Assembly (NCBI GenBank): GCA_039588275.1
Contig: JBDHAC010000009.1
Coordinates: 1 to 64,000 of the forward strand
Reading direction: 5' to 3'
Origin: Gemmatimonadota bacterium
Lineage (GTDB): Bacteria; Gemmatimonadota; Gemmatimonadetes; Palauibacterales; Palauibacteraceae
Length of the DNA stretch: 64,000 nt
The position numbers were made by a program, and so were the translations under genes. Position 1 is the stretch's first letter. Each line of letters starts with the position of its first letter. Under the pieces are notes generated by a model. The model did no database searches. It saw only the letters and a program-made list of their open reading frames with translations, and was not told the DNA's origin. Of the stretch, positions 988 through 21,084 are shown piece by piece.

Positions 988-998
988 AGGTGGTGACC

Positions 999-2495
999 AT
1001 GAAAGACTCACGTAAGCATACGTCGCTCGCGTGGGCCGGTCTCGTGCTCCTCGCCGGCATCTTCGTGGGTTGTACCGACGAGGAAACCGTGTTCGTGGAG
1101 CGGCCCTTCTTCGATGACCCGCCCGCCAACGCCGGGGGTTTCCTGGGCTGGGACCAGCCAACTGAGAAGCTGACGGTGTGCGGGAACTGCCACGTCGGCC
1201 AGCAGAGCGGCTACGAGCTCACCAACCACGCCGATGCGTGGAACACGCTGCAGAATAACCCGAATGCGCAGGAATTCTGCGAGAACTGCCACACCGTCGG
1301 CGGCTACGGCAACCAGACGGACGAGGGCGGTTGGGCGACCACGGCCGATGAGCGCTATCTCGACGTGCAGTGCGAGAATTGCCACGGCCCCGGTGAGGCG
1401 CATGTGAGGAACCCGGATGCTGGCGCCAAGCCGCAGGCCGAGGCCGCGGTGGGGCTCGATACCGGCACGGGGTGCGGGGAGTGCCACGAGGGCACGCACC
1501 ACGGCTTCGTGGACGAGTGGCTCGACTCGCCGCACTCGCAAGTCGTCGGCTTCGCGGCAGCCCGGGCAGCGTGTGAGCGCTGCCACAAGGGTCAAGGGAC
1601 CCTCACGGCGTGGGGTGAGAACGCGGACTACGTCGAGAAGGATGGCGACGCGCTCGCGGTCGTCTGCGTCGTATGCCACGATCCCCACGATCGGACGAAC
1701 GAGCACCAGCTGCGCTTCCCGGTCAGAACGAACGTGATCGAGAACCACCTGTGTGCCCAGTGTCACGATCGTCGAACGGTTCCCGATCCCGGCTCGTCGC
1801 ACGGCCTCCACCCGCACGCGCCCGAAGCGGCATTGCTCGTCGGAGAGGCAGGTTGGTTCCCGCCGGGTGCGGGCTTCGACCCGGGTCAGATCATCGCCAC
1901 GCACGGAAGCGAGGGGAACCCCGAGCTGTGTGCGACCTGTCACCTGCCTTCGTTCGAAGTGACAGACCCGGGCACCGGCGACCACATCTTCTCCGTGACG
2001 GGGCACCTGTTCCGGCCGATCCCGTGCGTGGATGCGCTGGGGGTCCCCGAAGGGTTCGGGGTCGATTGCGGGCTCACCACCGCGGAGCGCTATTACACGG
2101 GGTGCACCGGGGGCGGGTGCCACTTCAACGAGCAGGCGGCAGCCTCGGCGATCACGTCCAAGTCCAACACGATCCAGTTCCTCGCGGACGAGGTGCACCA
2201 CCTGCTCGACATCGTGGATCCGAATGGTGAAGACCCGGGTGGCGAGATCGATGCCACCAATCCGTCGTTCACGGTGGCGGAGGGGGCGCTATTCAACCAC
2301 TCGCTTGCCGAGCACGGCGACGAGGATTTCGGGACGTTCACGGTGCTCGGATCGACCGCCCACAACCCGTTCCTGATGGAGGCGCTGCTGATCGCCAGCA
2401 TCCAGGCCCTCCAAGACGAGTACGGCGTGTCGGGGCGCATCGAGCGCGACTGGGACCTCGAGCTGCAGAAGGTCCTGAACAGCGTGCCCAGGTAA
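999..2495 (+). CDS. Multiheme c-type cytochrome lipoprotein (8 CXXCH + 1 CX4CH), OcwA/OmhA/c554-like
   Basis: ATG 999 after aggtggtga; signal peptide with lipobox FVGC; CGNCH, CENCH, CENCH, CGECH, CERCH, CVVCH, CAQCH, CATCH, CTGGGCH; VQCENCHGPG motif; helical C-terminus with HNP motif; no CXXCK. Confidence 0.9.
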   Translation: MKDSRKHTSLAWAGLVLLAGIFVGCTDEETVFVERPFFDDPPANAGGFLGWDQPTEKLTVCGNCHVGQQSGYELTNHADAWNTLQNNPNAQEFCENCHTVGGYGNQTDEGGWATTADERYLDVQCENCHGPGEAHVRNPDAGAKPQAEAAVGLDTGTGCGECHEGTHHGFVDEWLDSPHSQVVGFAAARAACERCHKGQGTLTAWGENADYVEKDGDALAVVCVVCHDPHDRTNEHQLRFPVRTNVIENHLCAQCHDRRTVPDPGSSHGLHPHAPEAALLVGEAGWFPPGAGFDPGQIIATHGSEGNPELCATCHLPSFEVTDPGTGDHIFSVTGHLFRPIPCVDALGVPEGFGVDCGLTTAERYYTGCTGGGCHFNEQAAASAITSKSNTIQFLADEVHHLLDIVDPNGEDPGGEIDATNPSFTVAEGALFNHSLAEHGDEDFGTFTVLGSTAHNPFLMEALLIASIQALQDEYGVSGRIERDWDLELQKVLNSVPR

Positions 2496-2500
2496 CGAAG

Positions 2501-2519: not shown

Positions 2520-2522
2520 ATA

Positions 2523-2548: not shown

Positions 2549-2672
2549 CTCGCAAGGGGGTCAAGGCCGCGTTCGGAAGGTGACGGACGCGCCCGGCGGG
2601 ACGTCTAGTGTGCGGCGGCCCTCTCGACAATCGAAGAAGGGCGCACGGACTCTGAAAGCGGAGCGAAAGAAC

Positions 2673-3077
2673 ATGACCCGAATCGGCCCGATTGCGGCCA
2701 TTATCGCCCTCTGCGCTGGGCTCATCGCGACGACCACCGCCATCGCTCAAGAAGCGCCGGCGAAACCACCCGTCGTCCAGCACGATCTCGAGGGGCGCAG
2801 CGCGTGCCTCGCTTGTCATGGCGGCGCGATGGAGGCGATTCCCGCCGTTCCGGAGAGCCACACCAGCCGCCCCGACGAGACGTGCCTCTGGTGCCACGCC
2901 GCCGGCGCGCAGATCCAGACGACCGACCCGAAGACGATCTCGCACGATCTCGAAGGTCGCAGCGCGTGTCTGATGTGCCATGCGGCCGGCGTCATGGAAG
3001 CCATCCCGGATGTGCCCGCGACGCACGAGGGAAGGGCGGACCAGTTCTGCACGCTGTGCCACCAGACGGCGGGCTAA
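2673..3077 (+). CDS. Small periplasmic tetraheme cytochrome c made of two tandem diheme repeats
   Basis: Signal peptide ending AIA-Q; CLACH, CLWCH, CLMCH, CTLCH; unit HDLEGRSACLxCH...MEAIP.VP..H..R....CxxCH occurs twice. Confidence 0.9.
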   Translation: MTRIGPIAAIIALCAGLIATTTAIAQEAPAKPPVVQHDLEGRSACLACHGGAMEAIPAVPESHTSRPDETCLWCHAAGAQIQTTDPKTISHDLEGRSACLMCHAAGVMEAIPDVPATHEGRADQFCTLCHQTAG

Positions 3078-3185
3078 GGCGAATCGCGCGACGCGTTCGC
3101 GCTCGACATAGATAGCGTTGGGCGGCCGACGAGCGCCTGATCGTGCTTGTCGGAGTGCCCGCCCAGGCTCGGGAGACGGGGCCTG

Positions 3186-3653
3186 ATGGAGAAGGAGGCG
3201 GCACGAAAGAACCCGCGGCTTGATCTTAACGGCCTGCTTCTGGCTGCCGTCGTCCTGCTGATGATCACGGGCGCCGCCCTCGCGGTGGCCCTCTACGTCC
3301 TGCCCGGCGAGCACCTCGACGTTCCCGAAACACAACCCGCGATTCGCATCGAGAGCGAAGAGCACTTCATGGTCGGGTCGAGTCGCGTCCAGAATCTGGG
3401 CGAAGAGGTCATCCTCGTCGTGCGCCGCGCCGAGGCCGACTACCACGCATTGCAGGGGATCTCGCCGGCTGATGGGTGCATCCTGCGTTGGGATGAAGAA
3501 TCGCTACGGGTCGTCTCACCCTGCACGCATGCGGTGTACGATCTGCGCGGGAACGTGGTTCGGGGACTGACCCGCGAGCCGCTCCATCGGTATCCCGTTT
3601 ACGTCCGGAACGGAGTCGTGTATGTCGCAACACGGTCGGCTGCGGGCGGCTAG
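3186..3653 (+). CDS. Degenerate Rieske-fold protein lacking [2Fe-2S] ligands
   Basis: N-terminal TM helix, Rieske-like C-terminus (YDLRGNVVRG...PLHRYPV); box I SPADGC and box II SPCTHA in place of CTHxxC and CxCHxx. Confidence 0.8.
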   Translation: MEKEAARKNPRLDLNGLLLAAVVLLMITGAALAVALYVLPGEHLDVPETQPAIRIESEEHFMVGSSRVQNLGEEVILVVRRAEADYHALQGISPADGCILRWDEESLRVVSPCTHAVYDLRGNVVRGLTREPLHRYPVYVRNGVVYVATRSAAGG

Positions 3654-4929
3654 GCGTCGCGTCTCGGCCTGGCTGGGCCAGTTCCGGGCCGACGTCAAGG
3701 CGAGCCTGGATCCCGGCCTGCTGCGAATCCTGCGGTTGTTCGGGCTAGCCTACGGCCCGATTCACCGCCGGGTCCCGATCGACCAAGCCCTCCGTGAGGT
3801 CGTCCGCAACCCGGTGCCCTCGCACGTCGGGTGGCCACACCTGTTCGGTTGGGTGACGTACCTCCTGTTCATGATTCTCGTGGTGAGCGGAGTCCTCCTC
3901 GCGCTCTACTATCGTCCGGCGGTCGGCGAGGCATACGCGAGCATACAGCACATCGTGTCGGACGTGCGCATGGGCTGGCTAATGCGTGACATGCATGTGT
4001 GGGCGGCCAGCCTGATCGTGATCGCCGTCCTCGTGCATATGGGGCGCGGGTTCCTGTACGGGGCCTATCACCCACCACGCGAGACGGTGTGGCTGGTCGG
4101 GTTGATTCTCTTGCTTCTGATCCTCGCTTTCGGGGCTACCGGATACCTCCTCCCCTGGGACCAGTGGTCCTACTGGACCGTGACGGAAGCCCTCAACACG
4201 CTCGGCGCCATGCCGATCGCGGGCAACTTCCTGGTGCGGATCCTGACGGGAGCCGAGTTCGTCTGGGGTGCGACGCTGAGCCGATTCTTCGCCATCCACG
4301 TGATCATCCTGCCGTGGCTCGTTTTCGGCCTCCTGGGCTTTCACATCAGCATGGCCAGGCGGCACGGTCCCGCACCGCCTGTACGCGGAGCACCGAAGGA
4401 CGATCCAGGCGTGCCGTTTTACCCGACGCACCTGTTGCGCAACTTCGTGGTCGGCGTGCTGGTCACAGCGGCGGTCATCACCCTAGCGGCGATCTACCCG
4501 AGACCAGTCGGCGACCCGGCCAACCCGCTCCAGCTGCCAGAGGAGATCGTCTCGACGTGGGTGGTGGTGGACGTCACACGCGCCCTGCTTCATTACCTGG
4601 GCCCATGGGGTCTGGGTCTGGTGACCCTGCTCGGGGTCAGCCTGGGCCTGATCCCGTTGTTCGATCGGAGAGGGGGGAAGCGGCTGCGGGAACGCCCTGT
4701 GGCCGTGGCGCTGGCCTCGACGTTCTTCCTCGTTTTCCTGGCAGCCTGGGTGGCCGGTCGTCGCCTGCAGGCGCCGCCGGCGCCCGAACTCCTCACGCCG
4801 GCCCTCGAGCAGGTCGCTCCGTCCGACGCTGGCACGCCGATACCTGAGCCCGGACCCGAGCCCGTGTGGCCGGCGCCGCCTCCGGATCCGCAGCCGGATG
4901 CGCCGCACGAGGGAGGGGGCGGCTCGTGA
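3622..4929 (+). CDS. Cytochrome b (bc-complex type) with degenerate Qo site
   Basis: Four heme b His (RDMHVW...VHMGR; AIHVII...FHISM), GYLLPWDQ; the PEWY position reads STWV (4552-4563); Pro-rich C-tail. Confidence 0.9.
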   Translation: MSQHGRLRAARRRVSAWLGQFRADVKASLDPGLLRILRLFGLAYGPIHRRVPIDQALREVVRNPVPSHVGWPHLFGWVTYLLFMILVVSGVLLALYYRPAVGEAYASIQHIVSDVRMGWLMRDMHVWAASLIVIAVLVHMGRGFLYGAYHPPRETVWLVGLILLLLILAFGATGYLLPWDQWSYWTVTEALNTLGAMPIAGNFLVRILTGAEFVWGATLSRFFAIHVIILPWLVFGLLGFHISMARRHGPAPPVRGAPKDDPGVPFYPTHLLRNFVVGVLVTAAVITLAAIYPRPVGDPANPLQLPEEIVSTWVVVDVTRALLHYLGPWGLGLVTLLGVSLGLIPLFDRRGGKRLRERPVAVALASTFFLVFLAAWVAGRRLQAPPAPELLTPALEQVAPSDAGTPIPEPGPEPVWPAPPPDPQPDAPHEGGGGS

Positions 4930-6179
4930 GGTCGCTCGCACGCTCGGCGTGGGTCGGCCTCATGACCGCCGTGCTGTTGGCGCCGGCGGCGCCGCGCGCC
5001 GTCTCGGCGCAGCAGACACCCCGCCTGAGCGCCCACCCGGACTCCGTGTACGGGTGCATCGTGTGCCACGCGGACAAGCGGAGGGCGTTCGTGCTTGGGG
5101 TGCACTCCGAGTGGGGGATCCGTTGCAGCGACTGCCACGGGGGCGATCCGCGGGCGTTCGAGATCGCGGACGCCCACGTCGGACGGTTCATCGGACACCC
5201 GGAGAAGCTCGAAACAGTCCAGATCTGCAGCACGTGCCACTCGAGCGTCGACCTCATGCGGCAGTACGGCATCCCGGCTGACCAGATCGCGGAGCTGCGG
5301 TCCAGTCGGCACGGACAGCTGCTCCTCGAGCAAGGGAACGAGGACGCGCCCACATGCACGGACTGTCACGACGCGCACACGATCCATCGACCGGACGATG
5401 CGCGGAGCAAGACGCATCCGACTGCCATCCCGGCCACCTGTGGGCGGTGCCACGAGGACGCCGGCCTTATGGGACGGTATGAGTTGCCCACCAACCAGTT
5501 CGAGGAGTATCGCTCGAGTGCGCACGGCCAGGCGCTCTACGACGAGCTGAACTTCGCCGCGCCCAGTTGCATCGGCTGCCACGGCTCGCACGCGGCGCTG
5601 CCGCCGTCCGTCACCGAGATCTCCAACGTCTGCGGCCAGTGCCACCTGCTCGTGCGCGAGGCCTTCGGCGGGGGACTCCATGGCGCGGCAGCGGCCGGCG
5701 GCGCCCTCCCGGGTTGTACCGCGTGTCATTCCAACCACAGCACCGAGCCCGTGCCGATCGACGGGATAGCTGACACCTGCACGTCGTGTCACGATGCCGA
5801 TACGGACGTGGCCGTGCTCGGGGAGGAGATCCAGGAGCGCGTGATACGCGCGAACTCGCAGATGGAAGAGGCCGAGAGCGCGCTCGAGGAGCTGGTGCGG
5901 GCCGGACGCCCGGTGGAGGACTATCGCTTTCGTTTTCAGAGCGCGCGCACCGCGTACGAGCAAATCGCTCTCGTGCAGCATAGCCTCGATCTGGAACAGC
6001 TCGAAGACCTGGGTCTGCGCGTGGCGTCGGTTTCCGGGGACATCCGGGCCGCCGCCGAGGTCAGCGAGGAGCGCAGATGGGAGCACCGGCTGCTCCTCAT
6101 CCCGGTGTGGTTCTTCGCGCTCGCCGCGATCGCGTTCGCGAGCTTCAAGCTGCGGACGAACACTGCGGAGGGTCCGTAA
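4926..6179 (+). CDS. Nonaheme cytochrome c with C-terminal coiled coil and membrane anchor
   Basis: GTG overlaps the upstream TGA; signal peptide; 9 CXXCH; C-terminal TM helix; paralog of 19218-20543. Confidence 0.9.
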   Translation: MRSLARSAWVGLMTAVLLAPAAPRAVSAQQTPRLSAHPDSVYGCIVCHADKRRAFVLGVHSEWGIRCSDCHGGDPRAFEIADAHVGRFIGHPEKLETVQICSTCHSSVDLMRQYGIPADQIAELRSSRHGQLLLEQGNEDAPTCTDCHDAHTIHRPDDARSKTHPTAIPATCGRCHEDAGLMGRYELPTNQFEEYRSSAHGQALYDELNFAAPSCIGCHGSHAALPPSVTEISNVCGQCHLLVREAFGGGLHGAAAAGGALPGCTACHSNHSTEPVPIDGIADTCTSCHDADTDVAVLGEEIQERVIRANSQMEEAESALEELVRAGRPVEDYRFRFQSARTAYEQIALVQHSLDLEQLEDLGLRVASVSGDIRAAAEVSEERRWEHRLLLIPVWFFALAAIAFASFKLRTNTAEGP

Positions 6180-6181
6180 CC

Positions 6182-8191
6182 GTGGGTCGCGTGAGCTTGT
6201 GGCTGCGGAGCCTTTCGAGGCGCGCCCAGATCACGGTCCAGGTGGGCGTCGGCCTCGTGATCGTGCTCCTGCTCGGCACGGTGGGCTTCGTCGAGTACAG
6301 CGGGCAGCCGAGCTTCTGCCTCAACTGCCACATCATGGAGCCCTACTACGAGTCGTGGCAGACCTCCACGCACAACGATGTCGCCTGCATCGAGTGCCAC
6401 TACGCGCCCGGCGTCAAGGCCGAGGCGATGGGCAAGTTCCAGGCAGCCAACCAGGTGGTGAAGTACGTCACGGGTGCATACGGGACGAAGCCGTGGGCGG
6501 AGATCGAGGATGCGGCCTGCCTGCGGTCGGGGTGTCATTCCGAGCGTAAGCTGGAGGGCGTGGTCGCGTTCCGGGGGATCCGCTTCGACCACACGCAGCA
6601 CCTGGGGCAGCTGCGTCGCGGCAAGCAGCTGCGCTGCACGAGCTGCCACTCGCAGATCGTGCAGGGCGACCACCTGGCCGTGACCGTGTCGACCTGCAAC
6701 CTGTGTCACTTCAAGGACCGACCGGCGGGCGAGCCCATCGCGGGCTGCACCGGCTGCCACCAGACACTCCCGCGGGTTGAATCGCCGGCGGGCTTCGTGG
6801 TCGATCACGATCAGTACGTGCAGGATCTCACCTCGTGCACGGGGTGTCACGCAGAGGTCACCGTGGGCGCGGGGGAGGCGGAGCGTGATCGGTGCTTCAC
6901 ATGCCACAACCGGCCGGAGCGCGTGGCGGAGTTCGACGACGTCACGCTCGTGCACCAGGTGCACATCGCGCAGCACAACGTGGAGTGCCAGCAGTGCCAC
7001 ACGCCGATCGAGCACCGACTGGTCGCGCTCGAAGCCACGTTCGAGCTGGACTGCCAGGGCTGTCACCAACGCGCGCACGATGAGCAGCGACGCATGTACG
7101 CCGGCATTGGCGGACACGGTGCCGAGGACATGCCGAGCGCGATGTATCAAGCGCGTGTCTCGTGCAAAGGGTGTCATGCCCTGCCGACGGAGATCCGCGG
7201 CCACGAGGAGGTGCAGTTGGCCGGCGAAGCGACGTGTCTGTCGTGTCACGGCATCCGCTACGCCAATATCCTCCCCGCGTGGCAGGACGGCATCCAGGGG
7301 CGCGTGACCCGCGTAGCAGGCGTGGTGAGCGGGGCCCGCCGGACGCTGGGATCGGCCTCCGTGGCCGGGCGCGCGGCGGCGGACAGCCTGATCCGACTGG
7401 CGGAGGAGAACGTCGAGTTCGTCAGTCGCGGCAGGGGCGCGCACAACATCGCGTATGCCGATCAGCTTCTGGTGGCGGCCCTGGCCCTCGTCCGAGATGC
7501 GGTCCAGCAGGGCAGGTTGCCGTACACGGAGCCCGACGTCGCGCTCGGCCCAACCGTGGGGGAGAACGTGTGTCTGCGGTGCCACCTGGGGCAGGAGCGC
7601 CGCCGGGTGGATTTTCAGGGCGGCGAATTCGACCACGGCCCGCACGTGCTCGGCGGGATGACGTGTTCCAACTGCCACACGTCCCTCGACCAGCATGGGG
7701 GCACGACCCTCTCGGACCGGGCCTCGTGCGAGGGGTGCCACCACGGCCAGGTGGAGCCACTGGTCTGCGGTCGTTGCCACGAGGGGCCAGGTGGGGCTCC
7801 CGCGGCGGTGCTCCAGACCCCGGTCGGGCAGTTCTCGCACACGGTGCACCGGGAAGGCGGCTTGCCCTGCGCCGTGTGCCACACGGCGCCCGACATGAGC
7901 CCGGAGACGTCGGTGTGCGAGGGCTGCCACGCGCTGCACCACCAGCCTGAGGCGTCCTGCGTGGCCTGTCACGCGGAAGGTGCCCTCGCCAGCCACCCGC
8001 GTGCCGCGCACGAGGGGTGCGAGGTTTGTCACGGAGAGCGTGTCGCAGGCATCACGCAGTGGACCCGGAGCGTGTGCACGGTCTGTCACGTGGACCGCGT
8101 CGAGCACAACCCGCCGATGGATTGCGTGACGTGTCACAGGATTCCGGCCCTGGGCGAGCCCGACCCGGACCAGGCCGAGGAAGGGAGGTGA
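6182..8191 (+). CDS. NapC/NirT-headed membrane-anchored 22-heme cytochrome c
   Basis: GGAGG then GTG 6182; N-terminal TM; NapC-like PSFCLNCHIMEPYYESWQTSTH...CIECH; 21 CXXCH + CLRSGCH. Confidence 0.9.
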   Translation: MGRVSLWLRSLSRRAQITVQVGVGLVIVLLLGTVGFVEYSGQPSFCLNCHIMEPYYESWQTSTHNDVACIECHYAPGVKAEAMGKFQAANQVVKYVTGAYGTKPWAEIEDAACLRSGCHSERKLEGVVAFRGIRFDHTQHLGQLRRGKQLRCTSCHSQIVQGDHLAVTVSTCNLCHFKDRPAGEPIAGCTGCHQTLPRVESPAGFVVDHDQYVQDLTSCTGCHAEVTVGAGEAERDRCFTCHNRPERVAEFDDVTLVHQVHIAQHNVECQQCHTPIEHRLVALEATFELDCQGCHQRAHDEQRRMYAGIGGHGAEDMPSAMYQARVSCKGCHALPTEIRGHEEVQLAGEATCLSCHGIRYANILPAWQDGIQGRVTRVAGVVSGARRTLGSASVAGRAAADSLIRLAEENVEFVSRGRGAHNIAYADQLLVAALALVRDAVQQGRLPYTEPDVALGPTVGENVCLRCHLGQERRRVDFQGGEFDHGPHVLGGMTCSNCHTSLDQHGGTTLSDRASCEGCHHGQVEPLVCGRCHEGPGGAPAAVLQTPVGQFSHTVHREGGLPCAVCHTAPDMSPETSVCEGCHALHHQPEASCVACHAEGALASHPRAAHEGCEVCHGERVAGITQWTRSVCTVCHVDRVEHNPPMDCVTCHRIPALGEPDPDQAEEGR

Positions 8192-8195: not shown

Positions 8196-9503
8196 GTGCG
8201 CCCTTGGACGGGGGTGCCGGTCGTTCTCTTCCTCGCCTCGGTAGGCTGGCTCGATCCACCCGCGCGCGCGGCTGCGCAGGACGTCGCGTGTGAGGCATGT
8301 CACGGGAACCGGGCGTTCCTCGCAGGCAAGACACCCACGCCCGCGCAGGACTCGGCCCTGTTCGTGCCCGACGCGTTGGTCTCCGAGACTGTGCACGCGA
8401 ATCTCCCGTGTGCGGCATGTCACCCCGCCCCTGCCGAGGGCTATCCGCACCCAGCTCCGGCCGCTCTCCCCTGCGAAACCTGCCACGCGGAGGCGGGGCA
8501 GAAGTGGGAGATCTCGATCCACGCCGAGGGCGTCGACGGTGAAACCCACGGCGCCCGGTGTGTGGACTGCCACACCCCGCACGAGGTGTACCGAGCGGAC
8601 GACCAGCGGGCGGAGACGCACCCGCTGAACGTGGCCGCGATGTGCGGGCGGTGTCACGCGGACGAGCACATCATCGACGAGTACTTCACGGCCCCTGAGG
8701 AGACTCAGGCGCGGGTCGCGGTCGAGCAGTTCCACCAGACGGTGCACGGCACGGCGCTGTCGCGCGCAGGCCTGGCGGTCTCCGCCACCTGCAACGACTG
8801 CCACCGGGGGCACGATGTCCTGCCCGGTTGGGATCCCCGATCGTCGGTGCACCGCGATCACGTCGCGGCCACCTGCGAGGAGTGCCACGTGGGGATCCGG
8901 GAGCGCTACGAGCGCTCGGCACACGGAACCGCAGGTCCGACCGTAACGTCCAGCGGCGAAATCCGACAGCCGCCGGTGTGCACGGACTGTCACACCTCGC
9001 ACCAGATCGTGCGGGCGGACGAGCCGGGGTGGTTCGTGGGAGTCGTCGAGGAGTGCGGAGCCTGCCACCAGCAAGTGTACGACACCTACTTCGAGACGTA
9101 TCACGGGCAGGTCACCGCGCTCGGGTTCGCGCTCACGGCGAAGTGCAGCGACTGCCACTCCCCGCATTTGATGCTGCCCGCGTCGGACCGCGAGTCCACG
9201 GTCCACCCCCGGAATCTCGTCCGCACCTGCCAGCAGTGTCACCCGGAGGCGAACGCGAGCTTCGTTCGCTACTTCGCGCACGGCGATCACCGCGACCGTG
9301 AGCGTTTCCCGGTGCTGTTCTGGACCTGGGCGATCATGACCACGCTGCTCGTGAGCGTGTGGTCGTTCTTCGGCCTTCATTCCTTCTTGTGGCTCGGACG
9401 CGTGGCGATCGATCGGATCCGGGGGATAGGCCCGCACTCGTACCATTTGCCAGGCGGTACCCAGCCGATCAAGCGAGAGAAGAAGGGGAAGGGGGACGCG
9501 TGA
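8196..9503 (+). CDS. Undecaheme cytochrome c with C-terminal TM helix (CbcL-like c domain)
   Basis: Signal peptide; 11 CXXCH; AKCSDCH...HGDH..RERFPVLFW matches the C-terminal heme block of 10351-13182. Confidence 0.9.
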   Translation: MRPWTGVPVVLFLASVGWLDPPARAAAQDVACEACHGNRAFLAGKTPTPAQDSALFVPDALVSETVHANLPCAACHPAPAEGYPHPAPAALPCETCHAEAGQKWEISIHAEGVDGETHGARCVDCHTPHEVYRADDQRAETHPLNVAAMCGRCHADEHIIDEYFTAPEETQARVAVEQFHQTVHGTALSRAGLAVSATCNDCHRGHDVLPGWDPRSSVHRDHVAATCEECHVGIRERYERSAHGTAGPTVTSSGEIRQPPVCTDCHTSHQIVRADEPGWFVGVVEECGACHQQVYDTYFETYHGQVTALGFALTAKCSDCHSPHLMLPASDRESTVHPRNLVRTCQQCHPEANASFVRYFAHGDHRDRERFPVLFWTWAIMTTLLVSVWSFFGLHSFLWLGRVAIDRIRGIGPHSYHLPGGTQPIKREKKGKGDA

Positions 9504-10354
9504 GGAAGATCGCGTCCTCCGACCGTGGCCACGGTCCCTACGTGTGGCGCTTCAGTCCCTTCGAGCGGGTCCTCCATCTCATGGTGATCGTCTCGTTCTT
9601 CGGGCTGGTCATGACGGGCACGCCGCTCCTGTTCTCGCACACTCCGTGGGCGCGGGGGATGATCCGCCTGTTCGGAGGGTTCCAGGCGGCCGGGTACATC
9701 CACCGCGTGTGCGCGGTCCTCACCTTCGCCTACTTCTTCCTGCACGTCGGGCAGCTGACGTATCGGATCGCGAAGAGCTCGAACCGGAAACGGTTCTTCT
9801 GGGGACCGGACTCGATGGTCGCACAACCCAAGGACTTCCAGGACCTGGCCCAGACGTTCCGCTGGTTCTTCGGCAGGGGATCGCCGCCCCAATTCGACCG
9901 CTGGAGCTACATGGACAAGCTCGATTACTGGGGCGAGGTCTGGGGAGTGGCGGTGATCGGCGGCTCTGGGCTGGTCCTCTGGTTCCCCACGTTCTTCTCG
10001 AAGCTACTTCCCGGTTGGATGTTCAACGTCGCGACGATCATCCACGGCATCGAGGCCCTACTGGCGGCGGGCGTGATCTTCACCATCCACTTCTTCAACG
10101 TGAACCTGCGCCCCGAGAAGTTTCCGATCGACGTGGTGATGTTCACGGGCCGCGCGACGCTCTCGTACATGAAGGAGGAGCACCCGCTCGAGTACCGCCG
10201 GCTGATCGAGGACAGCAGCCTCGAAGAGCGATTCGCCCCCGCGCCGACGAAGACGGCGTACGTGTGGTCGGTGTCTCTCGGCCTCGTGGGTCTGTCGATC
10301 GGGCTCTTCCTGATCGGATTGATCCTGTGGGCGCTGTTGTTCGGGGGAGGATGA
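9500..10354 (+). CDS. FdnI/HydC-type membrane cytochrome b (CbcL-like b domain)
   Basis: GTG overlaps the upstream TGA; RF...ERVLH, IHR, LHV, IIHG, IHFF histidines; several TM helices; FP.D.V.FTG motif. Confidence 0.85.
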   Translation: MRKIASSDRGHGPYVWRFSPFERVLHLMVIVSFFGLVMTGTPLLFSHTPWARGMIRLFGGFQAAGYIHRVCAVLTFAYFFLHVGQLTYRIAKSSNRKRFFWGPDSMVAQPKDFQDLAQTFRWFFGRGSPPQFDRWSYMDKLDYWGEVWGVAVIGGSGLVLWFPTFFSKLLPGWMFNVATIIHGIEALLAAGVIFTIHFFNVNLRPEKFPIDVVMFTGRATLSYMKEEHPLEYRRLIEDSSLEERFAPAPTKTAYVWSVSLGLVGLSIGLFLIGLILWALLFGGG

Positions 10355-13182
10355 TGTCGCGCGACGGCCTGCGGGTGGATCCGCACGGACTGCGGGCGCC
10401 GGCCGTCGCGGCGGCCGGCCTCCTCGCGCTCATCGGCCCCGGGGCGACGCCGACGCTGGCTCAGGATGACGCCACCTGCGCCGTCTGCCACACCAACCCC
10501 GACTTCTTCCAGGGGCAGCCGAACCCGAGCCGCCTGATCGTACGGCCCGCCATGGTCGCCCGCTCGGTCCACGGCGCGGCGGGGTTCGGGTGCACGACGT
10601 GCCACGGTGCGATGGCTTTTCCGCACGCCGAGGACCGCGCCCCCGTCCAATGCGGCTCCTGCCACATCGAGGGTGAGCAGCACCGGCGCTCGCTTCACGG
10701 GCAGGCGGCGGCGAGGGGGGACCCGCTCGCGCCCAGCTGCGCGACCTGCCATGGCATCCACGCGGTGAAGTCACACACGGACCCGACCTCTCGCACGGCC
10801 GTGATGAACATCCCCACGCTGTGCGGGGAGTGCCACCACGAAGGGACGGAGGTGTCCCTGCAACGAAACATCCCGCAGGACCGGATCCTCGAGAACTACT
10901 CGCAGTCGATCCACGGCGAGGGTCTGTTCCGGCAGGGTCTGACTGTGACGGCCGTGTGCACCTCCTGCCACACCTCGCACAACATCCTGCCGCACACCGA
11001 CCGCCGCTCGAGCATCCACCACGAGAACGTCGCGGCGACCTGCACCCAGTGTCATGCGCTGATCGAACAGGTGCACCTCCAGGTGATCGAGGGCCGTCTG
11101 TGGGAGGAGCGTCCCGACGTGATCCCGGCGTGCGTCGATTGTCACGCACCGCACAGGATCCGGCGGGTCTTCTACGACACCGGGGCGGCCAACCAGGACT
11201 GCATGCGCTGTCATGGCGACGCCGGGCTCGTGGGGCTCGCGAACGGCGACAGCGTCTCGCTGTACGTGGATGAAGTCGCCTACGGTGCGGGAGCCCACGG
11301 AGAGACCGCCTGCGCGCAGTGTCACGACGACGTGACCCCCGGGCTGTCTCCCGCCACGCGCGCGTGCGCCACCGCCACCGCGAGCAGCGTGGACTGCAGC
11401 GTTTGCCACGAGGACCAGTCGGACGAGTACGGGGCCGGCATGCACGGGCAGCTCGCCGCGCAGGGCGATCCCGACGCGCCGGTGTGCCTGGACTGCCACG
11501 CGAAGCATGCGACGCTGGACCACGAGTCTCCCGAGTCTCCCACCTACCCGCGCAACGTCCCCGATCTGTGTGCCCGATGTCATCGACCCGGCGAAGCCGC
11601 GGCCGTGCGGATCGGCGAGGAGGTGCTCAACCCCGTGGAGAGCTACGGGATGAGCATCCACGGGAAGGGGCTGATAGAGAGCGGTCTGGTCGTGACAGCG
11701 ACCTGCTCGAACTGTCACACGGCGCACCGGGAGCTGCCGGCGAGCGATTCTCTGTCGAGCATCCACCCCGACAACGTCGCGGGGACCTGCGGGACGTGTC
11801 ACCACGGGATTGAAGAGGAGTTCGCGACCAGCATCCACGCGATCCGCCGAGCGGAGGGGGAGACCGAGCGCGAGCTGCCGACGTGCGAGGACTGCCACAC
11901 CTCGCACACGATCAGCCGCACGGACCTCGACGACTTCCGGCTGACGATGATGACCCAGTGCGGCCGGTGTCACGTGGATGAATCGGAGACGTTCTTCGAC
12001 ACGTTCCACGGCAAGGTGTCGAGGCTGGGCGAGGCCGGGGCCGCCAAGTGCTACGACTGCCACGGAACGCACAACATCCTGCAGCCCACCGAGCCGGCCT
12101 CGATGCTGAGCCGCCGCAACATCATCGAGACCTGCTCGCAATGCCACGCGGGGGTGAACCGCCGCTTCACCGGCTACCTGACCCACGCGACGCACCACGA
12201 CCCGGACCGGTATCCGTTCCTGTTCTGGACCTTCTGGGCGATGACCGCGCTGCTGATCGGGACGCTCAGCTTCGCGATCCTGCACACGCTCGCGTGGCTC
12301 TTCCGCCTGTCGCGCTCGGCCGAGAAGTGGAAGGTGCGCCACGTCGTCAGGCCGGGAGAGAAGGTGTACCAGCGGTTCACCGTCTTCCAGCGCACGCTCC
12401 ACATCGTCATGCTGCTCAGCTTCTTCATGCTCGCGCTCACCGGGATGGCCCTGAAGTTCTCGCACATGGTCTGGGCGCAGGTGTTCGCGGACCTGCTAGG
12501 CGGTTTCGCGGTCACCGGCGTGCTGCACCGAATCGGGGCCATCGCGCTGATCGTCGTGTTCGGGATCCACCTTCGGGAGTTGCGCCGTCAAAAACGGCGG
12601 CGAGAAACGACCTGGTGGCAGTTCCTCACAGACCCTGACTCCCTCGTCTTCAACCGGAACGACCTCAGGGAGCTGTGGGGGTCGATCAAGTGGTTCATGG
12701 GTCGCGCCGAGCGGCCGCACTACGGACGCTACACCTACTGGGAGAAGTTCGACTATTTCGCGGTCTTCTGGGGGATGATGGTGATCGGGTCCACCGGTCT
12801 CCTCCTCTGGTTCCCGGAGTTGTTCACCGTCCTGCTTCCAGGGTGGACGGTGAACGTCGCGACCATCATCCACAGCGATGAGGCACTGCTGGCCGTGGCC
12901 TTCATCTTCACGGTGCACTTCTTCAACACGCACTTCCGGCTCGACAAATTCCCCATGGACCCGGTGATCTTCACGGGGCACGTACCGGTGGACGAGCTCA
13001 AGCGCGACAAGCCTCGCGAATACGAGGAGCTGGTCGAGTCGGGGACGTTGGAGAACAAGCTGGTGGAGGCGTACCCCAGGAAACTGGAGAAGGCTTTCAA
13101 GATCTTCGGGATGACCGCGCTCGCCATCGGCGTCACGCTCATCCTGTTGATCGTGTACTCGATGTTGTTCGGATATCGATAG
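10351..13182 (+). CDS. Fused 19-heme cytochrome c / cytochrome b, CbcL-like quinol oxidoreductase
   Basis: ATGA overlap at 10351; signal peptide; 19 CXXCH; b domain with QRTLH, LHR, YWEKFDYFAVFWG, IIHSDEALLA, VHFFNTH, FPMDPVIFTG. Confidence 0.9.
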   Translation: MMSRDGLRVDPHGLRAPAVAAAGLLALIGPGATPTLAQDDATCAVCHTNPDFFQGQPNPSRLIVRPAMVARSVHGAAGFGCTTCHGAMAFPHAEDRAPVQCGSCHIEGEQHRRSLHGQAAARGDPLAPSCATCHGIHAVKSHTDPTSRTAVMNIPTLCGECHHEGTEVSLQRNIPQDRILENYSQSIHGEGLFRQGLTVTAVCTSCHTSHNILPHTDRRSSIHHENVAATCTQCHALIEQVHLQVIEGRLWEERPDVIPACVDCHAPHRIRRVFYDTGAANQDCMRCHGDAGLVGLANGDSVSLYVDEVAYGAGAHGETACAQCHDDVTPGLSPATRACATATASSVDCSVCHEDQSDEYGAGMHGQLAAQGDPDAPVCLDCHAKHATLDHESPESPTYPRNVPDLCARCHRPGEAAAVRIGEEVLNPVESYGMSIHGKGLIESGLVVTATCSNCHTAHRELPASDSLSSIHPDNVAGTCGTCHHGIEEEFATSIHAIRRAEGETERELPTCEDCHTSHTISRTDLDDFRLTMMTQCGRCHVDESETFFDTFHGKVSRLGEAGAAKCYDCHGTHNILQPTEPASMLSRRNIIETCSQCHAGVNRRFTGYLTHATHHDPDRYPFLFWTFWAMTALLIGTLSFAILHTLAWLFRLSRSAEKWKVRHVVRPGEKVYQRFTVFQRTLHIVMLLSFFMLALTGMALKFSHMVWAQVFADLLGGFAVTGVLHRIGAIALIVVFGIHLRELRRQKRRRETTWWQFLTDPDSLVFNRNDLRELWGSIKWFMGRAERPHYGRYTYWEKFDYFAVFWGMMVIGSTGLLLWFPELFTVLLPGWTVNVATIIHSDEALLAVAFIFTVHFFNTHFRLDKFPMDPVIFTGHVPVDELKRDKPREYEELVESGTLENKLVEAYPRKLEKAFKIFGMTALAIGVTLILLIVYSMLFGYR

Positions 13183-13228
13183 GTCGGCCCGCATGAAAAA
13201 CGGGTCATTAAAGCTCTGGAGAAAAGCC

Positions 13229-14701
13229 ATGAACGCCTATTGGCGTAGCCTGCTCGGGGCGGTGGTCGCCCTCTCGCTGGGCGCGCATACGCTCGCCGGA
13301 CAGGGATTCCGGGCCGAGGTCGGCGTGTGGGGCAGCTTCCTCGAGCTCCAGGGAATCGTCCGCGACAGCCTGCCGGAGGATCAAGTCCCGGGGGCTGGTC
13401 TGAGCCGTCGCCTCGGCGACGGCACGGTGGTCACATGCACCCCCGAGGAGTTCTGCCGCTGGTTCCGCACTGAGGGCGAGGAATCGATCAATGTGCTGAA
13501 CCAGGATCTCAAGATCTCGGCCTGGGCGGGTGGGAGCGTCCCGGGCCTGGCGGCGCACGCACACGTACGGGGGCGCTTCGGCACGGACGAGTTCTGGCCG
13601 CGGGAGAGCCAGGAGGTCGATGTGCTCACGGCGTACCTGAGCTACGACCGGAGCGGCTTCGGGGTTCGCGCGGGGCGCCTGTACCGTACCGACGGGCTCG
13701 GCTACCGGAACTTCGATGGGGCGTCGCTCGCCTGGTACGGGTTGGAGAACCTGCGGCTCGAGGCATATGGCGGCTGGAGCCTGGCGCCGCACATCAACGC
13801 ACCGCGCTCGGGCTCGCTCCTCACGACCGCCGACGTGTTCGCACCCGACGATCGGGGCTTCATCTTCGGCGCGAAGGTCGGGGGACGCCTCGCGGGCACG
13901 GTGTCGGGGAACGTCGTCTACCAAAGGGAGATCCGGACGGACCGCCAGGCGCTGTATTCCGACCGGCTCGGGTTAGACGCCCGCGCGCTGTTGGGACGCG
14001 TGACGGCCGAGGCGGCCGCGGAGTACGACCTCACGTACGAGGAGTTCAACGAAGCTCGCGTGCGACTCAGCGCTCCGATCGCCGGCGGCCTGGAGGTCTC
14101 GCTCCAGGGCCGGCACTACACCCCGTTCTTCGAGCTGTGGACGATCTGGGGGGCGTTCTCGCCGGTCGGCTTCAACGAAGGCCGGGCCGCCCTCCTGTGG
14201 GCCGTGCCCGGCGGCCACCTCAGCTTGGAGGCGGGTGGGGCGTACCGGAAGTACGAGGAGACCGACGCGGGCGCCGATTTCATCGAGATCAAGGACTACG
14301 GGTGGCGCGCGTTCGGTGGTGCCCACTTCACCAGCCGCGGCTGGTACCTGGACGGCAACTACCGAGCGGAAACGGGGTTCGGCGACGTCCGCTACGGTGG
14401 TGACGTCGGGATCGGCAAGCGCTTCGGGACCGGCCGCTACATCGGTTTGCAGGGATCGGCCACGCAGACCTTCGGCGAGTTCAGGCTCGGTGAGCAGGTC
14501 GTCAGCGGTGGCGGACTGGAAGGCGCCTGGCGGTTCGGCGACGTGTCGCTGTCGGGCGGAACGGCGCTGTATCGGATCACGTTCGAGAACCGGCCCAGCG
14601 CTGAGGATTGGACGCAAACCAGGGCATATGGGGGCATCTCGTATCGGTTCGGGAGCGATACATCCGGCTCGAGCCGCTCGGGGTCAGGAGGCGACCGATG
14701 A
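13229..14701 (+). CDS. Putative outer-membrane beta-barrel (porin of a porin-cytochrome conduit)
   Basis: Signal peptide; alternating aromatic/Gly beta-strand pattern throughout; last strand YGGISYRF followed by a short Ser/Gly tail; lies between multiheme genes. Alternative start 13193. Confidence 0.75.
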   Translation: MNAYWRSLLGAVVALSLGAHTLAGQGFRAEVGVWGSFLELQGIVRDSLPEDQVPGAGLSRRLGDGTVVTCTPEEFCRWFRTEGEESINVLNQDLKISAWAGGSVPGLAAHAHVRGRFGTDEFWPRESQEVDVLTAYLSYDRSGFGVRAGRLYRTDGLGYRNFDGASLAWYGLENLRLEAYGGWSLAPHINAPRSGSLLTTADVFAPDDRGFIFGAKVGGRLAGTVSGNVVYQREIRTDRQALYSDRLGLDARALLGRVTAEAAAEYDLTYEEFNEARVRLSAPIAGGLEVSLQGRHYTPFFELWTIWGAFSPVGFNEGRAALLWAVPGGHLSLEAGGAYRKYEETDAGADFIEIKDYGWRAFGGAHFTSRGWYLDGNYRAETGFGDVRYGGDVGIGKRFGTGRYIGLQGSATQTFGEFRLGEQVVSGGGLEGAWRFGDVSLSGGTALYRITFENRPSAEDWTQTRAYGGISYRFGSDTSGSSRSGSGGDR

Positions 14702-16105
14702 ACACGGGAGCGAAGATGCGTAAGGTCGCGATGGTTATCGGGAGCGCGCTCCTGCTGATGGTCGCGAGCGGTATGGTCCTCTCGGGGATGGGTGCGCAGG
14801 AGTTCCCGCACGAGCGTCACGCGAACCTGTTTCCGACGTGTATGGGGTGCCACGCGGGGATTCCGGAAGGGGACGCGGCGACCGCGTTCTCGGTCGACCC
14901 CGCATTCTGCGGAGGGTGCCACAACGGGAACGTGCAGCCGGAGGTCGATTGGTCGGGACCGACGCCGGTCGCCAGCAACCTCGCATTCGGGCACACGGAG
15001 CACCCGACGTGGAGAGACGATGGAGATCGCGCGGAACACACCCAGCGTGTGCCTGGGTTGTCACGCTCCGAGCGCGGAGGAGCACCAGGCCGCCGGTGTA
15101 GATTGCGCGAAGTGCCATGTGCCGATTGCGGACGCGCCCGACTTGAGCGCGGAGCGGATCGCCGCGTTCCCGCGCCCGGCGGATCACGAGTCGGACGACT
15201 ACGTCGCCGCACACGGCGGCCTTGGCGAGGCCGATGCGCAGCGGTGCTCGGTGTGCCACGCGCAGGAGAGCTGCAGCCGCTGCCACGTCAACGCGGATCG
15301 GCTTCCAGCGATTCGCGACCTGTCGTCGGATGACCGGGTGGCGGGCCTGGTGGCCGGGACGCCCGGAGTGTGGCCCAGGCCGACCAGCCACGAGTCGGCG
15401 GACTGGCTGAACACGCACGGCGGACAGGCGGCGGAATCGATCGAGAGCTGCGCCAGCTGCCACGCCCAGGAGAGCTGCGCGACGTGCCATGGAGAGGAAG
15501 CCGAGCGGCTCGCCGACGGACTCTCGAAGCAGCGCCCCGGTGGCCCGCAGGGGGCTGGAACGGTGGCCGTGCGCCCACCCGGGCATACGCCGAGCTTCGT
15601 GACGGAGCACGGCACCGCCGCGGCCGTCGAGCTGCCGCAGTGCAACTCGTGCCATGCGGAATCGTTCTGTGCCGATTGCCATGATGGGCCTGCAGCTCCG
15701 CGATTCAACGTGGAGAGCGCGGCCGGCTTTCACCCGGCGAACTTCGTCACCCGTCACGGCGCGGAGGCGTTCGCCCGGCAGACGCAGTGCAGCTCGTGTC
15801 ACTCGACCGAAGTGTTCTGCCGTGACTGCCATCAGCAGGTCGGCATCGGCCAGAGGGGGACCACGACGGGTGGGGCGTTCCACGATGCCCAACCGGGGTG
15901 GCTGCTCGCCCACGGTCAGGCGGCCCGTCAGGGCCTCGAGACCTGCACGGGTTGCCACGCTCAGCAGTCATGTCTGAAGTGCCACTCGGCGAGGAGCGGC
16001 TGGCGGGTGAGCCCGCACGGTCCCTCGTTCGACCCGAGTCGGGTGCAGGACCGAAGCACCATGTCGTGCGGGATCTGCCACTTCTCGTTCCAGCTCGATC
16101 CATAG
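14698..16105 (+). pseudogene. 15-heme periplasmic cytochrome c interrupted by a frameshift near 15001-15020
   Basis: Frame from ATG 14698 gives a signal peptide, CMGCH and CGGCH; a further 13 CXXCH lie in the +1 frame ending at 16105. Could be a sequencing or assembly error. Confidence 0.8.
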
Positions 16106-16344
16106 CGGCCGCCGCCGGCCCCTGGCTGCCGGTGGACCGATTCCCCGGATGAGTCGCGAGGAGCGGAGGAGCAAGATAGGATAATAAGGGGTTGCGGGTC
16201 CATCAGTCGGGATCGCCCCCTCCGCGAGTCCGGCACCGGACCCGCCGCCCCGCCTGTGCATCTCGGCGTGACTGCGCCGAAAGAGAAGCTTCTGGTCGGC
16301 CGCCGCGGTTGGAGGTGGCGTCGGCAGACAGGAAGGGGGTTCAC

Positions 16345-17559
16345 ATGAACGCCCAAATCCAAGCCCACGCTCATCAGGGGCGCCGCGTGGTGTTCGCGGC
16401 GCTTTGTGGGCTGTTCGTCGGGTCCGCGAGCCTGGTGGGGCAGGCGGCGGCCGGGCCCACGCAGAACGCCGCCGCCGGGGCGGCGGTCTTCGGCTCCAAG
16501 GGCTGCGTCCAGTGCCACGCGATCAAGGCCATGGGTGGAGGGGCAGGACCCGATCTGGGCCTCATTGAGGAGCGCCGCTCGTTCTTTCAGCTGGCGGCGG
16601 CGATGTGGAACCATCTCCCCGCCATGCACGCGACGATGGCGGAGGCCGGTACCGAGCGCCCGAGGCTCTCGGCCCAGGAGACCGGTGATCTCATCGCCTT
16701 CCTGTTCACGCTCGATTACTTCGACGCGATCGGGAGCGCGGACAGCGGACGGGCCCTATTCGCCGAGAGGAAATGCGTGCTCTGCCATCAAGTGCAGGGC
16801 GCCGGAGGGGTGATCGGGCCCAGCCTGGATTACCTGAGCCAGTACAGTTCGCCCATGTTTGTGGCCGCCGCCATGTGGGGGCACGGCCCCGGCATGGCGG
16901 AGACGATGAGGTCTCTGCGCGTCGAGCGGCCCCGGCTTACCGGAAGCGAATTCCGGGATCTGATGGCGTTCTTCCAATCGGTCTCTGAAGCCTCTCACGG
17001 GGGACCGATGTACGTTTTGCCCGGACGCGCGGACGTGGGGCGAGAGCTGTTCAGCAGCAAGTCGTGCCTGCGCTGCCACAGCGTGCGGGGGAGCGGAGGG
17101 CAGATCGGACCGCCACTGGGTGGCCGGGGGCTGGAATGGAGCGCGTCCGACTTCGTCGCGGCCCTGTGGAACAAGGCGCCCTCCATGCAGGCGGCCATGC
17201 TCGCGGGAGGGATCTTGATCCCCGACCTGAGTGCGGAAGAGATGGCGGATCTCGTGGCCTACCTCTACTCCGTCAACTACTTCAGCGAGACCGGTGACAC
17301 GCGTCGTGGTCGCCAGCTCGTCACTCAAAAGGGCTGTCTGCAGTGTCACGGGCTCGATGCTCGCGGGGGGACGACGGCTCCCGACCTCGCCGAGATCACC
17401 GGGCTCGTAACCCAAACCGAGGTCGTCTCGGCGCTCTGGAGCCACACTACCAGCGGTGTGGAGACATCGGCAGGCGAGTTGGCCGGCTGGCCTGCGTTGA
17501 GCGCGTCGGACATGGCGGATCTGGTGGCCTTCCTGCGCGGCTTGCGACAGGCTCCGTGA
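16345..17559 (+). CDS. Four-domain class I-like cytochrome c (copy 1)
   Basis: Signal peptide; CVQCH, CVLCH, CLRCH, CLQCH, each in a G..LF..K.CxxCH...GP.L...W.H/K..M repeat. Confidence 0.9.
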   Translation: MNAQIQAHAHQGRRVVFAALCGLFVGSASLVGQAAAGPTQNAAAGAAVFGSKGCVQCHAIKAMGGGAGPDLGLIEERRSFFQLAAAMWNHLPAMHATMAEAGTERPRLSAQETGDLIAFLFTLDYFDAIGSADSGRALFAERKCVLCHQVQGAGGVIGPSLDYLSQYSSPMFVAAAMWGHGPGMAETMRSLRVERPRLTGSEFRDLMAFFQSVSEASHGGPMYVLPGRADVGRELFSSKSCLRCHSVRGSGGQIGPPLGGRGLEWSASDFVAALWNKAPSMQAAMLAGGILIPDLSAEEMADLVAYLYSVNYFSETGDTRRGRQLVTQKGCLQCHGLDARGGTTAPDLAEITGLVTQTEVVSALWSHTTSGVETSAGELAGWPALSASDMADLVAFLRGLRQAP

Positions 17560-17835
17560 CGCGGGCGCGCGCGATCACCATTGGGGGCTGGCTGGCTCTC
17601 GCTGCCCTGGCCGCCCCCTCGGCTGCGTTCGGCCAGCAACCGGCCGATGAAGGCTGTGTGACCTACCACGGCGCCCTCGGCGACGAGCGTCCTCGGACCC
17701 GGTCGAGAGCTTCTCCGAAGACGAACACCTGCTCCAACTGCTACCCGGCTCATCAGATCCTTCAGACGTCGGATCCCCAATCCAGCGGCTACCCACACAA
17801 CGTGGCTGGATTGTGTGGCGGGTATCAGGTGGACG
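17556..17835 (+). pseudogene. Decayed remnant of a nonaheme cytochrome gene
   Basis: GTGA overlap and signal peptide, then GCVTYHGALGDER, TCSNCYPAH and NVAGLCGGYQ, aligning to SCATCHSVLGDER, TCVSCHPAH and NVASLCGACH of 19218-20543. Confidence 0.8.
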
Positions 17836-17997
17836 TTTCAGCTGGATGCGCCTCAAGTTTGCGTTTTCAGAGCCTTTCGAGGCATGCTACGGTTGAAGAA
17901 GGCACTGAAGTACCCGAGGACCCGTTTGTGGTCCCGATGAGCCGATGAAGAACAAACGATGCTCCGGTCGGCGGTGCAGTAGGAAGGTGGTTCGCGC

Positions 17998-20543: not shown

Positions 20544-20564
20544 TGTCGCGGGGGGGGAGGAGCG

Positions 20565-21035
20565 ATGGCAGCAGAGAATGCGCGTTCGAAGTCCACACAT
20601 TCAGCGTCTACACGTCGGCGTTTCGTCAATTGGATTCTGGGTACCAGCGCGGGGGGCCTCGTCCTGTCGGTCCTGTACCCGACCACGCGTTACCTTATCC
20701 CGCCCGAGGCGGCAGAGTCCACCGCGTCGACCGTAACGCTCCAGATATCACCGGACGAGATCGGCCCCAACACGGGTCAGATCTTCAGGTTCGGAAGTCG
20801 CCCGGGCATCCTCATCCGCACTCCCGACGGAGACCTGCGCGCGTACGAAGCTATGTGCACCCATTTGGATTGCATCGTCCAGTATCGGGACGATATCAGT
20901 CGGATCTGGTGTGCTTGCCACAACGGGCACTACGATCTGAACGGGATCAACATCCAGGGTCCTCCCCCGCGACCGCTCCAGCGCTTCACCGTGAACGTCC
21001 AAGAAGACAGGATCGTGATCGGGAGGGAATCGTGA
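20565..21035 (+). CDS. Rieske [2Fe-2S] subunit of a bc-type complex
   Basis: Tat motif TRRRFV, TM helix, CTHLDC (20856-20873), CACHNG (from 20910), GPPPRPL. Confidence 0.95.
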
Positions 21036-21084
21036 CCTTGAGCGCAGAAGTGCCCAGACAGGCCCGAGCGGGAGACTGACGGGC

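Follow-up and report, generated by a model that had tools for sequence, protein, structure and literature searches.

In the Rieske/cytochrome b complexes (bc1 and b6f), the Rieske 2Fe-2S cluster and the quinol-oxidation (Qo) motif of cytochrome b are usually treated as an indispensable core. A twin-arginine export motif is the mark of a cofactor-loaded Rieske protein, and the cytochromes b of Geobacter CbcL and CbcBA are FdnI-like. CbcBA is needed below about -0.21 V and is possibly reversible (PMC10553843), and the accessible text of a survey of Qo motifs gives the variants PEWY, PDWY, PAWY, APWY, GPWY and PPWF (PMC4122944). Here we describe a four-gene module from a Gemmatimonadota bacterium (contig JBDHAC010000009.1) that has lost both parts of this core. 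It lies within the 64,000-nt stretch of DNA analysed here, termed the window, in which all coordinates are given and all genes described are on the + strand. The module comprises a 155-residue Rieske-fold protein with no cluster ligands (the pseudo-Rieske, 3186..3653), a 435-residue cytochrome b with STWV in place of PEWY (3622..4929), a nonahaem cytochrome c (4926..6179) whose inferred GTG start overlaps the cytochrome b stop, and a cytochrome with 21 CxxCH motifs (6182..8191). The module is real, conserved and apparently undescribed: a literature search found no description of a ligand-less Rieske protein paired with a PEWY-less cytochrome b, and the accessible parts of PMC4122944 and PMC5600118 hold no Gemmatimonad or heterodimer passage, their supplements possibly bearing on the claim. 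We lean towards reading it as a natural bc complex that would work without a Q-cycle, either as a wire that runs from haem bH through haem bL to a periplasmic chain of 30 haems, with the cluster-less Rieske protein as its plug, or by cluster-free splitting or export of a low-potential electron, alone or as an asymmetric dimer.

The pseudo-Rieske comprises one transmembrane (TM) anchor and a Rieske β-fold, both of which appear in its AlphaFold2 (AF2) model (mean predicted local distance difference test score, pLDDT, 85.8), and its best Foldseek match is the Chlorobaculum Rieske protein 8hn2 (E 2.8e-8). When aligned to the canonical Rieske protein of the same window (20565-21035), its ligand positions read S93, A95, S111 and T114; C98 and C113, the disulfide cysteine pair, are present and presumably bonded to each other, and there is no twin-arginine motif. 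A preliminary description of this stretch had reported both open frames as intact and the cluster ligands as lost, and both statements hold; the retained disulfide cysteines were not noted there. A protein search returned 197 matches, and neither CxHxxC nor CxCH occurs in any of the best 120 (0/120). C98 and C113 are kept in all 120, with exactly two cysteines in 114. G97, C98, W102, S111 and C113 are invariant across this set, position 96 is always acidic (D in 117, E in 3), and the Pro loop of Rieske proteins is replaced by GL[TS]. A twin-arginine-like motif was found in 1/120, versus 18/20 canonical-type Rieske proteins. The window protein has a histidine one residue past a ligand position (His115; the position is His in 44 and Tyr in 63 of the 120), but this leaves no standard cluster site because both ligand cysteines are missing. 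When 1.84 billion representatives were searched with a profile, 12 matches had E up to 1e-30, all of them members of the pseudo-Rieske family or its fragments; among its best 150 matches, 113 have intact ligands and a few are unrelated Rieske proteins with partial ligand loss. Partial or complete loss of the cluster ligands is seen in the unrelated Rieske proteins P0376, P0417 and P0466, a hint that pseudo-Rieske lineages arose more than once.

The degenerate cytochrome b is bc-type by family (PF00033/PF13631), and its AF2 model (residues 1-385, pLDDT 87.3) has the bc-type fold with added N-terminal helices at 3-28 and 31-39; the protein has a conserved N-terminal extension of approximately 35 residues and ends in a Pro-rich tail. 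The four haem ligands (H125, H139, H226 and H241) and RRHG are present, PEWY is replaced by STWV at residues 311-314, and the cd1 segment reads WDQWSYWTVTE, versus [11 protein letters not shown] in the canonical copy, all as the preliminary description had read them. We aligned the window protein with the best 120 of 701 matches, giving 121 sequences, and mapped residue equivalences to reference cytochrome b positions through the alignment. All 121 keep the four haem histidines and all 121 have lost PEWY, with a segment of the type [ST][TS]W[VI] in its stead (S311 in 114, T/S312 in 120 and W313 in 121 of 121). The position of yeast Gly143 (G158; T186 in the window protein) is Thr in 110, Ala in 10 and Ile in 1, and is Ala in 19/19 intact companion cytochromes b; bulkier residues at this position prevent Qo binding (PMC7908018). 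The Val146 position (E189) is Glu in 112/121, and D317 (114/121) and R294 (121/121) are also near-invariant. The Qo site is disarmed at several levels, having no cluster ligands, no PEWY and a bulky residue at the Gly143 position, and the standard Q-cycle cannot run.

These losses were acquired long ago and have been retained. The preliminary description had proposed that Rieske and cytochrome b were inactivated in coordination, and had named a ratio of nonsynonymous to synonymous substitution rates (dN/dS) below 1, and the presence or absence of intact motifs in close homologues, as checks. None of the 120 Rieske homologues carries the ligand motif and none of the 121 cytochromes b carries PEWY. 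By the Nei-Gojobori method, applied to non-independent pairs at 75-99.5% identity and with synonymous divergence (dS) of 0.05-1.5, the median dN/dS is 0.146 for the pseudo-Rieske (425/453 pairs) and 0.164 for the degenerate cytochrome b (271/279 pairs), as compared to 0.139 and 0.155 for their nonahaem and 21-haem partners and 0.12 for the canonical pair. Judged by its homologues, the degenerate pair is confirmed as an old conserved family under purifying selection, not a product of decay. A decaying pseudo-operon or a recent relaxed duplicate would fit the frameshifted 16-haem gene and the nonahaem remnant found elsewhere in this cluster. However, the identical pattern is seen in 120/120 and 121/121 homologues at 48-88% identity, dN/dS between the window and its homologous locus L071 is 0.17 and 0.09, and the stem branch of the degenerate cytochrome b is long and fully supported. 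The shared pattern, the dN/dS values and the tree together lead us to reject recent decay, which we regard as vanishingly improbable.

Among 301 Gemmatimonadota genomes sampled, 31 encode a pseudo-Rieske ortholog (E <= 2e-42; the next best match is at 5e-19), and 58 of 60 loci are labelled Gemmatimonadota or its sub-groups. One locus labelled Akkermansiaceae (L097) and one protein labelled Thermoanaerobaculia were also seen, either of which may be mis-binned. In a metagenome scan, a single-protein query found nothing and an alignment query found loci; a search of the ESM Atlas returned ordinary cytochrome b and NapC-like clusters only.

Gene order was surveyed in 140 partly redundant loci, with denominators counting those loci that have room for the neighbor in question. 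The pseudo-Rieske precedes cytochrome b in 129/130, the lone miss being a frameshifted copy just beyond the distance window; the nonahaem gene follows in 96/96, and the 21-haem gene comes next in 84/86. Moreover, the list of pseudo-Rieske genomes includes all 22 of the 21-haem-positive genomes common to two samples (the window's own genome aside). The octahaem gene, the CbcBA- and CbcL-like genes, the putative porin with its 16-haem partner and the intact bc genes are frequent but are rearranged or found elsewhere among the loci. The fixed order of four genes against these variable neighbors therefore points to the four as the functional unit, which probably sits inside a larger multihaem cluster for extracellular electron transfer. 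The link that the preliminary description drew to NapC/CbcL-like multihaem genes agrees with this survey. Four loci (L071, L122, L159 and L026) appear to fuse cytochrome b and the nonahaem protein in a single reading frame, which might be taken as proof of contact; we count them as artefacts because in each the separate nonahaem signal peptide is kept and the cytochrome b tail is frameshifted or unreadable.

We tentatively propose, a shade short of even confidence, that the pair is a self-contained, non-bifurcating dihaem wire between a quinone site on the N-side (cytoplasmic side) of the membrane and the multihaem chain, working beside an interchangeable intact bc complex. Behind this reading stand the retention of both pairs of b-haem ligands and of protonatable residues on the N-side, the joint occurrence of the four genes and the exchangeability of the intact bc companion. 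On the cytoplasmic (Qi) side, the His217 position is Arg and the Lys251 position Arg or Lys in 121/121, His270 is found in 115/121, and D24, D30 and R38 of the N-terminal extension, plus His73, are near-invariant across the 121. In Rhodobacter cytochrome b, the H217R variant is functional, a single protonatable residue at K251 or D252 is enough for proton entry, and substitutions at Qi positions like those seen here are tolerated one at a time (PMC5001787). These data suggest a Qi site that is remodelled yet plausibly alive. A third haem bound by His73 and His270 was considered and is unsupported, as the two residues do not co-vary.

In the proposed wire, quinone would react only at the cytoplasm-side, Qi-derived site, and electrons would run between bH and bL and on to the periplasmic c-haem chain of the nonahaem and 21-haem proteins. 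The disulfide-stabilized head of the pseudo-Rieske would plug the old Qo crater and hold the complex together. The module would then be one gate among several that lead in parallel from the inner membrane to the cluster's porin-cytochrome conduit, with a division of labor in which an intact bc complex with a Q-cycle serves high-potential acceptors and the module serves low-potential exchange, the role that CbcL and CbcBA have in Geobacter. Our guess is that the direction is outward, as export assisted by the proton-motive force (PMF), with the reverse direction forming an electrogenic redox loop.

The nonahaem partner lends the wire further support. Besides a C-terminal helical stalk and membrane anchor, it has a haem domain with a homologue in the CbcL-like protein encoded in the same cluster (probability 99.7; 34% identity over 175 columns, E 2e-25), the comparison being made with the window protein, where the haem domain is fused to a dihaem cytochrome b, and not with Geobacter CbcL. 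The 21-haem protein has an NrfH/NapC-like membrane head, in which the Met of the CxxCHxM haem-1 motif and the equivalent of Lys82 are present in 79/79 sequences. This head allows another explanation, in which the pair only anchors or organizes the nonahaem/21-haem wire, its b haems are structural, and quinol chemistry takes place at the NrfH-like head. The alteration of both classical Qi ligands in the degenerate cytochrome b would suit a membrane scaffold of this kind, as would the fact that the haem path from bL to the c haems is only predicted. However, the position of the quinol-binding Asp89 of NrfH is Gln in 70 and Met in 9 of the 79 and is never acidic, although CymA also lacks Asp89 and yet works (PMC3279761), and the invariant or near-invariant charged residues of the N-side (D24, D30, R38, R246, H270 and R273) exceed the obvious needs of a scaffold. 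We consider this explanation unlikely. Gln and Met are both possible haem ligands, and haem 1 of the 21-haem head may be closed to quinol.

The conserved residues around the former Qo site raise the further possibility of bifurcation without a Rieske cluster, whereby a remodelled P-side quinol site would use new conserved acids (D96 at the Rieske tip, E189 and D317 of cytochrome b) together with Tyr/His115, and a c haem would replace 2Fe-2S as the high-potential acceptor. The conservation of D96 (117/120, with E in 3), E189 (112/121), D317 (114/121) and R294 (121/121) is what such a site would call for, and an aromatic residue or His stands at Rieske position 115 in most sequences. The same acids and R294 could just as well be salt bridges that fix the head in place, the Thr at the Gly143 position is expected to occlude the pocket, and the sister module of family f12, described below, carries Lys/Arg at that position in 10/10 sequences; these points make this alternative quite improbable.

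The remaining alternative concerns the second, intact set of bc genes in the window (19218..22182), which comprises a nonahaem paralog, a Rieske protein with CTHLDC/CACH and a cytochrome b with PEWY. The preliminary description had correctly located this set and noted that each set has its own cytochrome with nine CxxCH motifs. It had gone on to infer an asymmetric heterodimer in which one protomer bifurcates and the other is a structural or haem-wire protomer, possibly linking the low-potential chain to the NapC/CbcL-like proteins. Under this alternative, the degenerate pair would be the silent protomer beside the intact Rieske/cytochrome b; it would take the low-potential electron over the bL-bL bridge and hand it either to the multihaem chain or to a Qi site of its own. 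A second bc-type cytochrome b is indeed found in 29/31 module genomes versus 85/270 others (related genomes not being independent), in 7/8 further genomes reached via loci, and in 9/9 others with a degenerate cytochrome b, giving 45/48 in total; a tenth genome of the last group (G375) was dropped, as it had no bc-type match at all, and companion motifs were read in 4 of those 9. The companion frequently shares the cluster or operon with the degenerate pair, and at the end of the operon one subgroup has recruited an unrelated intact pair. Helix D is conserved around the ligand of bL, and cross-inactivated Rhodobacter dimers support growth in vivo (PMC4152375).

Against this, the canonical cytochrome b type of the window is missing (at E 1e-62) from 8 of the 31 module genomes; five of these have a fusion of a PEWY cytochrome b to a cytochrome c (three linked, two unlinked), one has a PDWY type and two have none. 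Genome G384 carries two companions, one of them of a PEWF type. The companions fall into at least four types (nonahaem-linked PEWY, cytochrome b-c fusion PEWY, PDWY and PEWF), which are often unlinked and, where compared, 32-40% identical to one another. In two members of one genus (G016 and G076), the degenerate cytochromes b are 84% identical, while the sole companion cytochromes b are 36% identical and unlinked. Six genomes of the same class have the canonical type but no module, and no other bc-type cytochrome b was found in G191 (96% complete, 4 contigs), G269 (93%) or G308 (completeness not given). A quick tree of 79 cytochromes b gives the degenerate clade a long stem (support 100) and does not place it as sister of the canonical one. 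Distances for the degenerate cytochrome b correlate with those for the nonahaem (r 0.77) and 21-haem (r 0.76) partners, and least with those for the canonical cytochrome b (r 0.55, the lowest in the matrix), whereas the latter correlates at r 0.91 with its own nonahaem protein; these values, computed over 31 sets with all seven genes and without a significance test, are easily affected by rate variation, which explains part of the correlations since the module nonahaem and 21-haem proteins also reach r of approximately 0.7 with the canonical cytochrome b. Of the heterodimer proposal, the conserved inactivation, purifying selection, co-occurrence and multihaem link stand. With a second bc-type cytochrome b in 45/48 genomes, a loose need for some intact bc complex may also hold. 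The fixed canonical partner does not stand: a fixed-partner heterodimer is refuted, and the data show the intact bc complex to be an exchangeable companion and not a fixed part of the module. The asymmetric heterodimer is, in our estimation, doubtful.

The non-bifurcating wire must also answer several points that weigh against it, one of which is the sensitivity of the correlations just given. Its co-occurrence with an intact bc complex (94%) is far above background, a stand-alone wire does not strictly need an intact companion, NrfD-type quinol-site proteins are encoded too, and the three companion-less genomes could be about what incompleteness gives. On the Qi side, the Asp252 equivalent is lost (Ser in 95/121) and the haem ci cysteine is absent, so that Qi activity would be compatible with the sequence and nothing stronger, and the histidines and haem-contact residues could have been kept for folding alone. 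The geometry from bL to the c haems is the weak step of the model: bL is buried in canonical cytochrome b, and the nonahaem domain sits on a long helical stalk. Finally, the cluster already encodes two CbcL/CbcBA-like gates.

A sister module hints at how the degenerate state arose. It is carried by two genomes of family f12 of the same phylum (G009, at L048:9924-15045, and G006, at L049) and has the order Rieske-cytochrome b-nonahaem-20-haem and a similar N-terminal extension, but unlike the degenerate module it retains intact Rieske ligands and PEWY or PDWY. Its cytochrome b has Lys/Arg at the Gly143 position in 10/10 sequences, and the quick tree groups it to one side together with the degenerate clade (support 89), a placement that carries a long-branch warning. 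These features suggest that blockage of the Qo pocket preceded the loss of the cluster, with the f12 module as a half-way stage. Nine of the ten f12 proteins are approximately 243 residues long, which might suggest loss of the PEWY half; this was rejected, since G006 encodes its cytochrome b in two parts, b6 and a separate subunit IV that carries PDWY. In G009, which is 98% complete, no haem-copper oxidase was detected. Other divergent cytochromes b were also seen. The window's own genome encodes one without PEWY (KPLW segment; L225:112-1143, G000:C32). At L226:4472-6097 (G000:C60), a cytochrome b-like protein continues into a Cys cluster of the ferredoxin type and then another domain at its C-terminus, which we take to be MvhD-like; it adjoins a haem-copper oxidase-family gene, and similar weak PF00033 matches occur in several relatives.

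Around the module, the window holds a dense array of multihaem genes. Upstream lie an octahaem cytochrome (990..2495), often present but not fixed and, from its N-terminus, likely a lipoprotein, and a small tetrahaem cytochrome (2673..3077), a variable neighbor. Downstream are an 11-haem cytochrome with an FdnI-like dihaem cytochrome b (8196..10354) and a 19-haem cytochrome fused to an FdnI-like cytochrome b (10351..13182), named CbcBA-like and CbcL-like by analogy, followed by a haem-less protein and a frameshifted periplasmic 16-haem cytochrome gene (13193..16105). The haem-less protein (13193-14701, approximately 500 residues) is conserved next to the 16-haem gene and has no Pfam or NCBIfam match; it is likely the outer-membrane porin of a porin-cytochrome conduit. 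The 16-haem gene (14608-16105) is frameshift-split relative to the intact gene of genome G280, which reflects either an assembly error or a real break. Two cytochromes with four class-I c domains apiece (16192..19221) complete the array up to the intact bc set; between these tandem tetrahaem genes, at 17630-17870, lies a decayed nonahaem remnant with degenerate CxxCH motifs, 50% identical to the nonahaem protein at 19218 over 40 residues. A scan of positions 500-20000 for promoters and terminators gave nothing above chance.

If the module does operate without a Q-cycle, it would be the first wild-type case of a bc complex giving up the Q-cycle. A phylum-wide lineage that has dropped cluster and Qo motif while the rest stays under selection shows that the bc scaffold can be put to another use. 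The module also provides a natural setting in which to study the roles of bL, bH and Qi when there is no bifurcation, and to ask whether asymmetric dimers occur in nature. Approximately one in ten sampled Gemmatimonadota genomes carries this large, undescribed multihaem electron-transfer apparatus. Automatic annotation labels the pseudo-Rieske as a ferredoxin subunit and the degenerate protein as an ordinary cytochrome b, labels that would lead metabolic models to score one complex III too many.

The module is best placed by comparison with four described systems. Like NrfH (Desulfovibrio vulgaris, 2j7a), the 21-haem protein has a TM anchor, a CxxCHxM haem 1 and a Lys82 equivalent; unlike it, Gln or Met occupies the Asp89 position and a long multihaem extension follows. 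Geobacter CbcL/CbcBA would be analogs of the module in function, in that a dihaem b membrane subunit coupled to multihaem c connects quinones with the cytochromes of the periplasm, at low potential and possibly in either direction. They have no Rieske-fold subunit, and the degenerate cytochrome b is bc-type, so the analogy is one of how the systems work and not of descent. The engineered cross-inactivated bc1 dimers of Rhodobacter, as described in the accessible part of PMC4152375, share with it a dead-Qo protomer that retains bL and bH, which there works through the bL-bL bridge; those are laboratory fusions of two cytochromes b with an intact Rieske protein, whereas here the companion varies by lineage and the Rieske protein is disarmed. 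The Rieske/cytochrome b complexes themselves (bc1, b6f) share the Rieske fold with its TM anchor and disulfide cysteines, the cytochrome b fold with its four histidines, and the gene order Rieske-cytochrome b-membrane-anchored cytochrome c. The closest solved sequences to the degenerate cytochrome b are cytochrome b6 (2zt9/1vf5), and the closest Rieske fold is that of Chlorobaculum tepidum (8hn2). In contrast to these complexes, the module lacks the 2Fe-2S ligands, the twin-arginine motif, a PEWY-type motif and the haem ci cysteine, and has instead a bulky residue at the Gly143 position and extra N-terminal helices.

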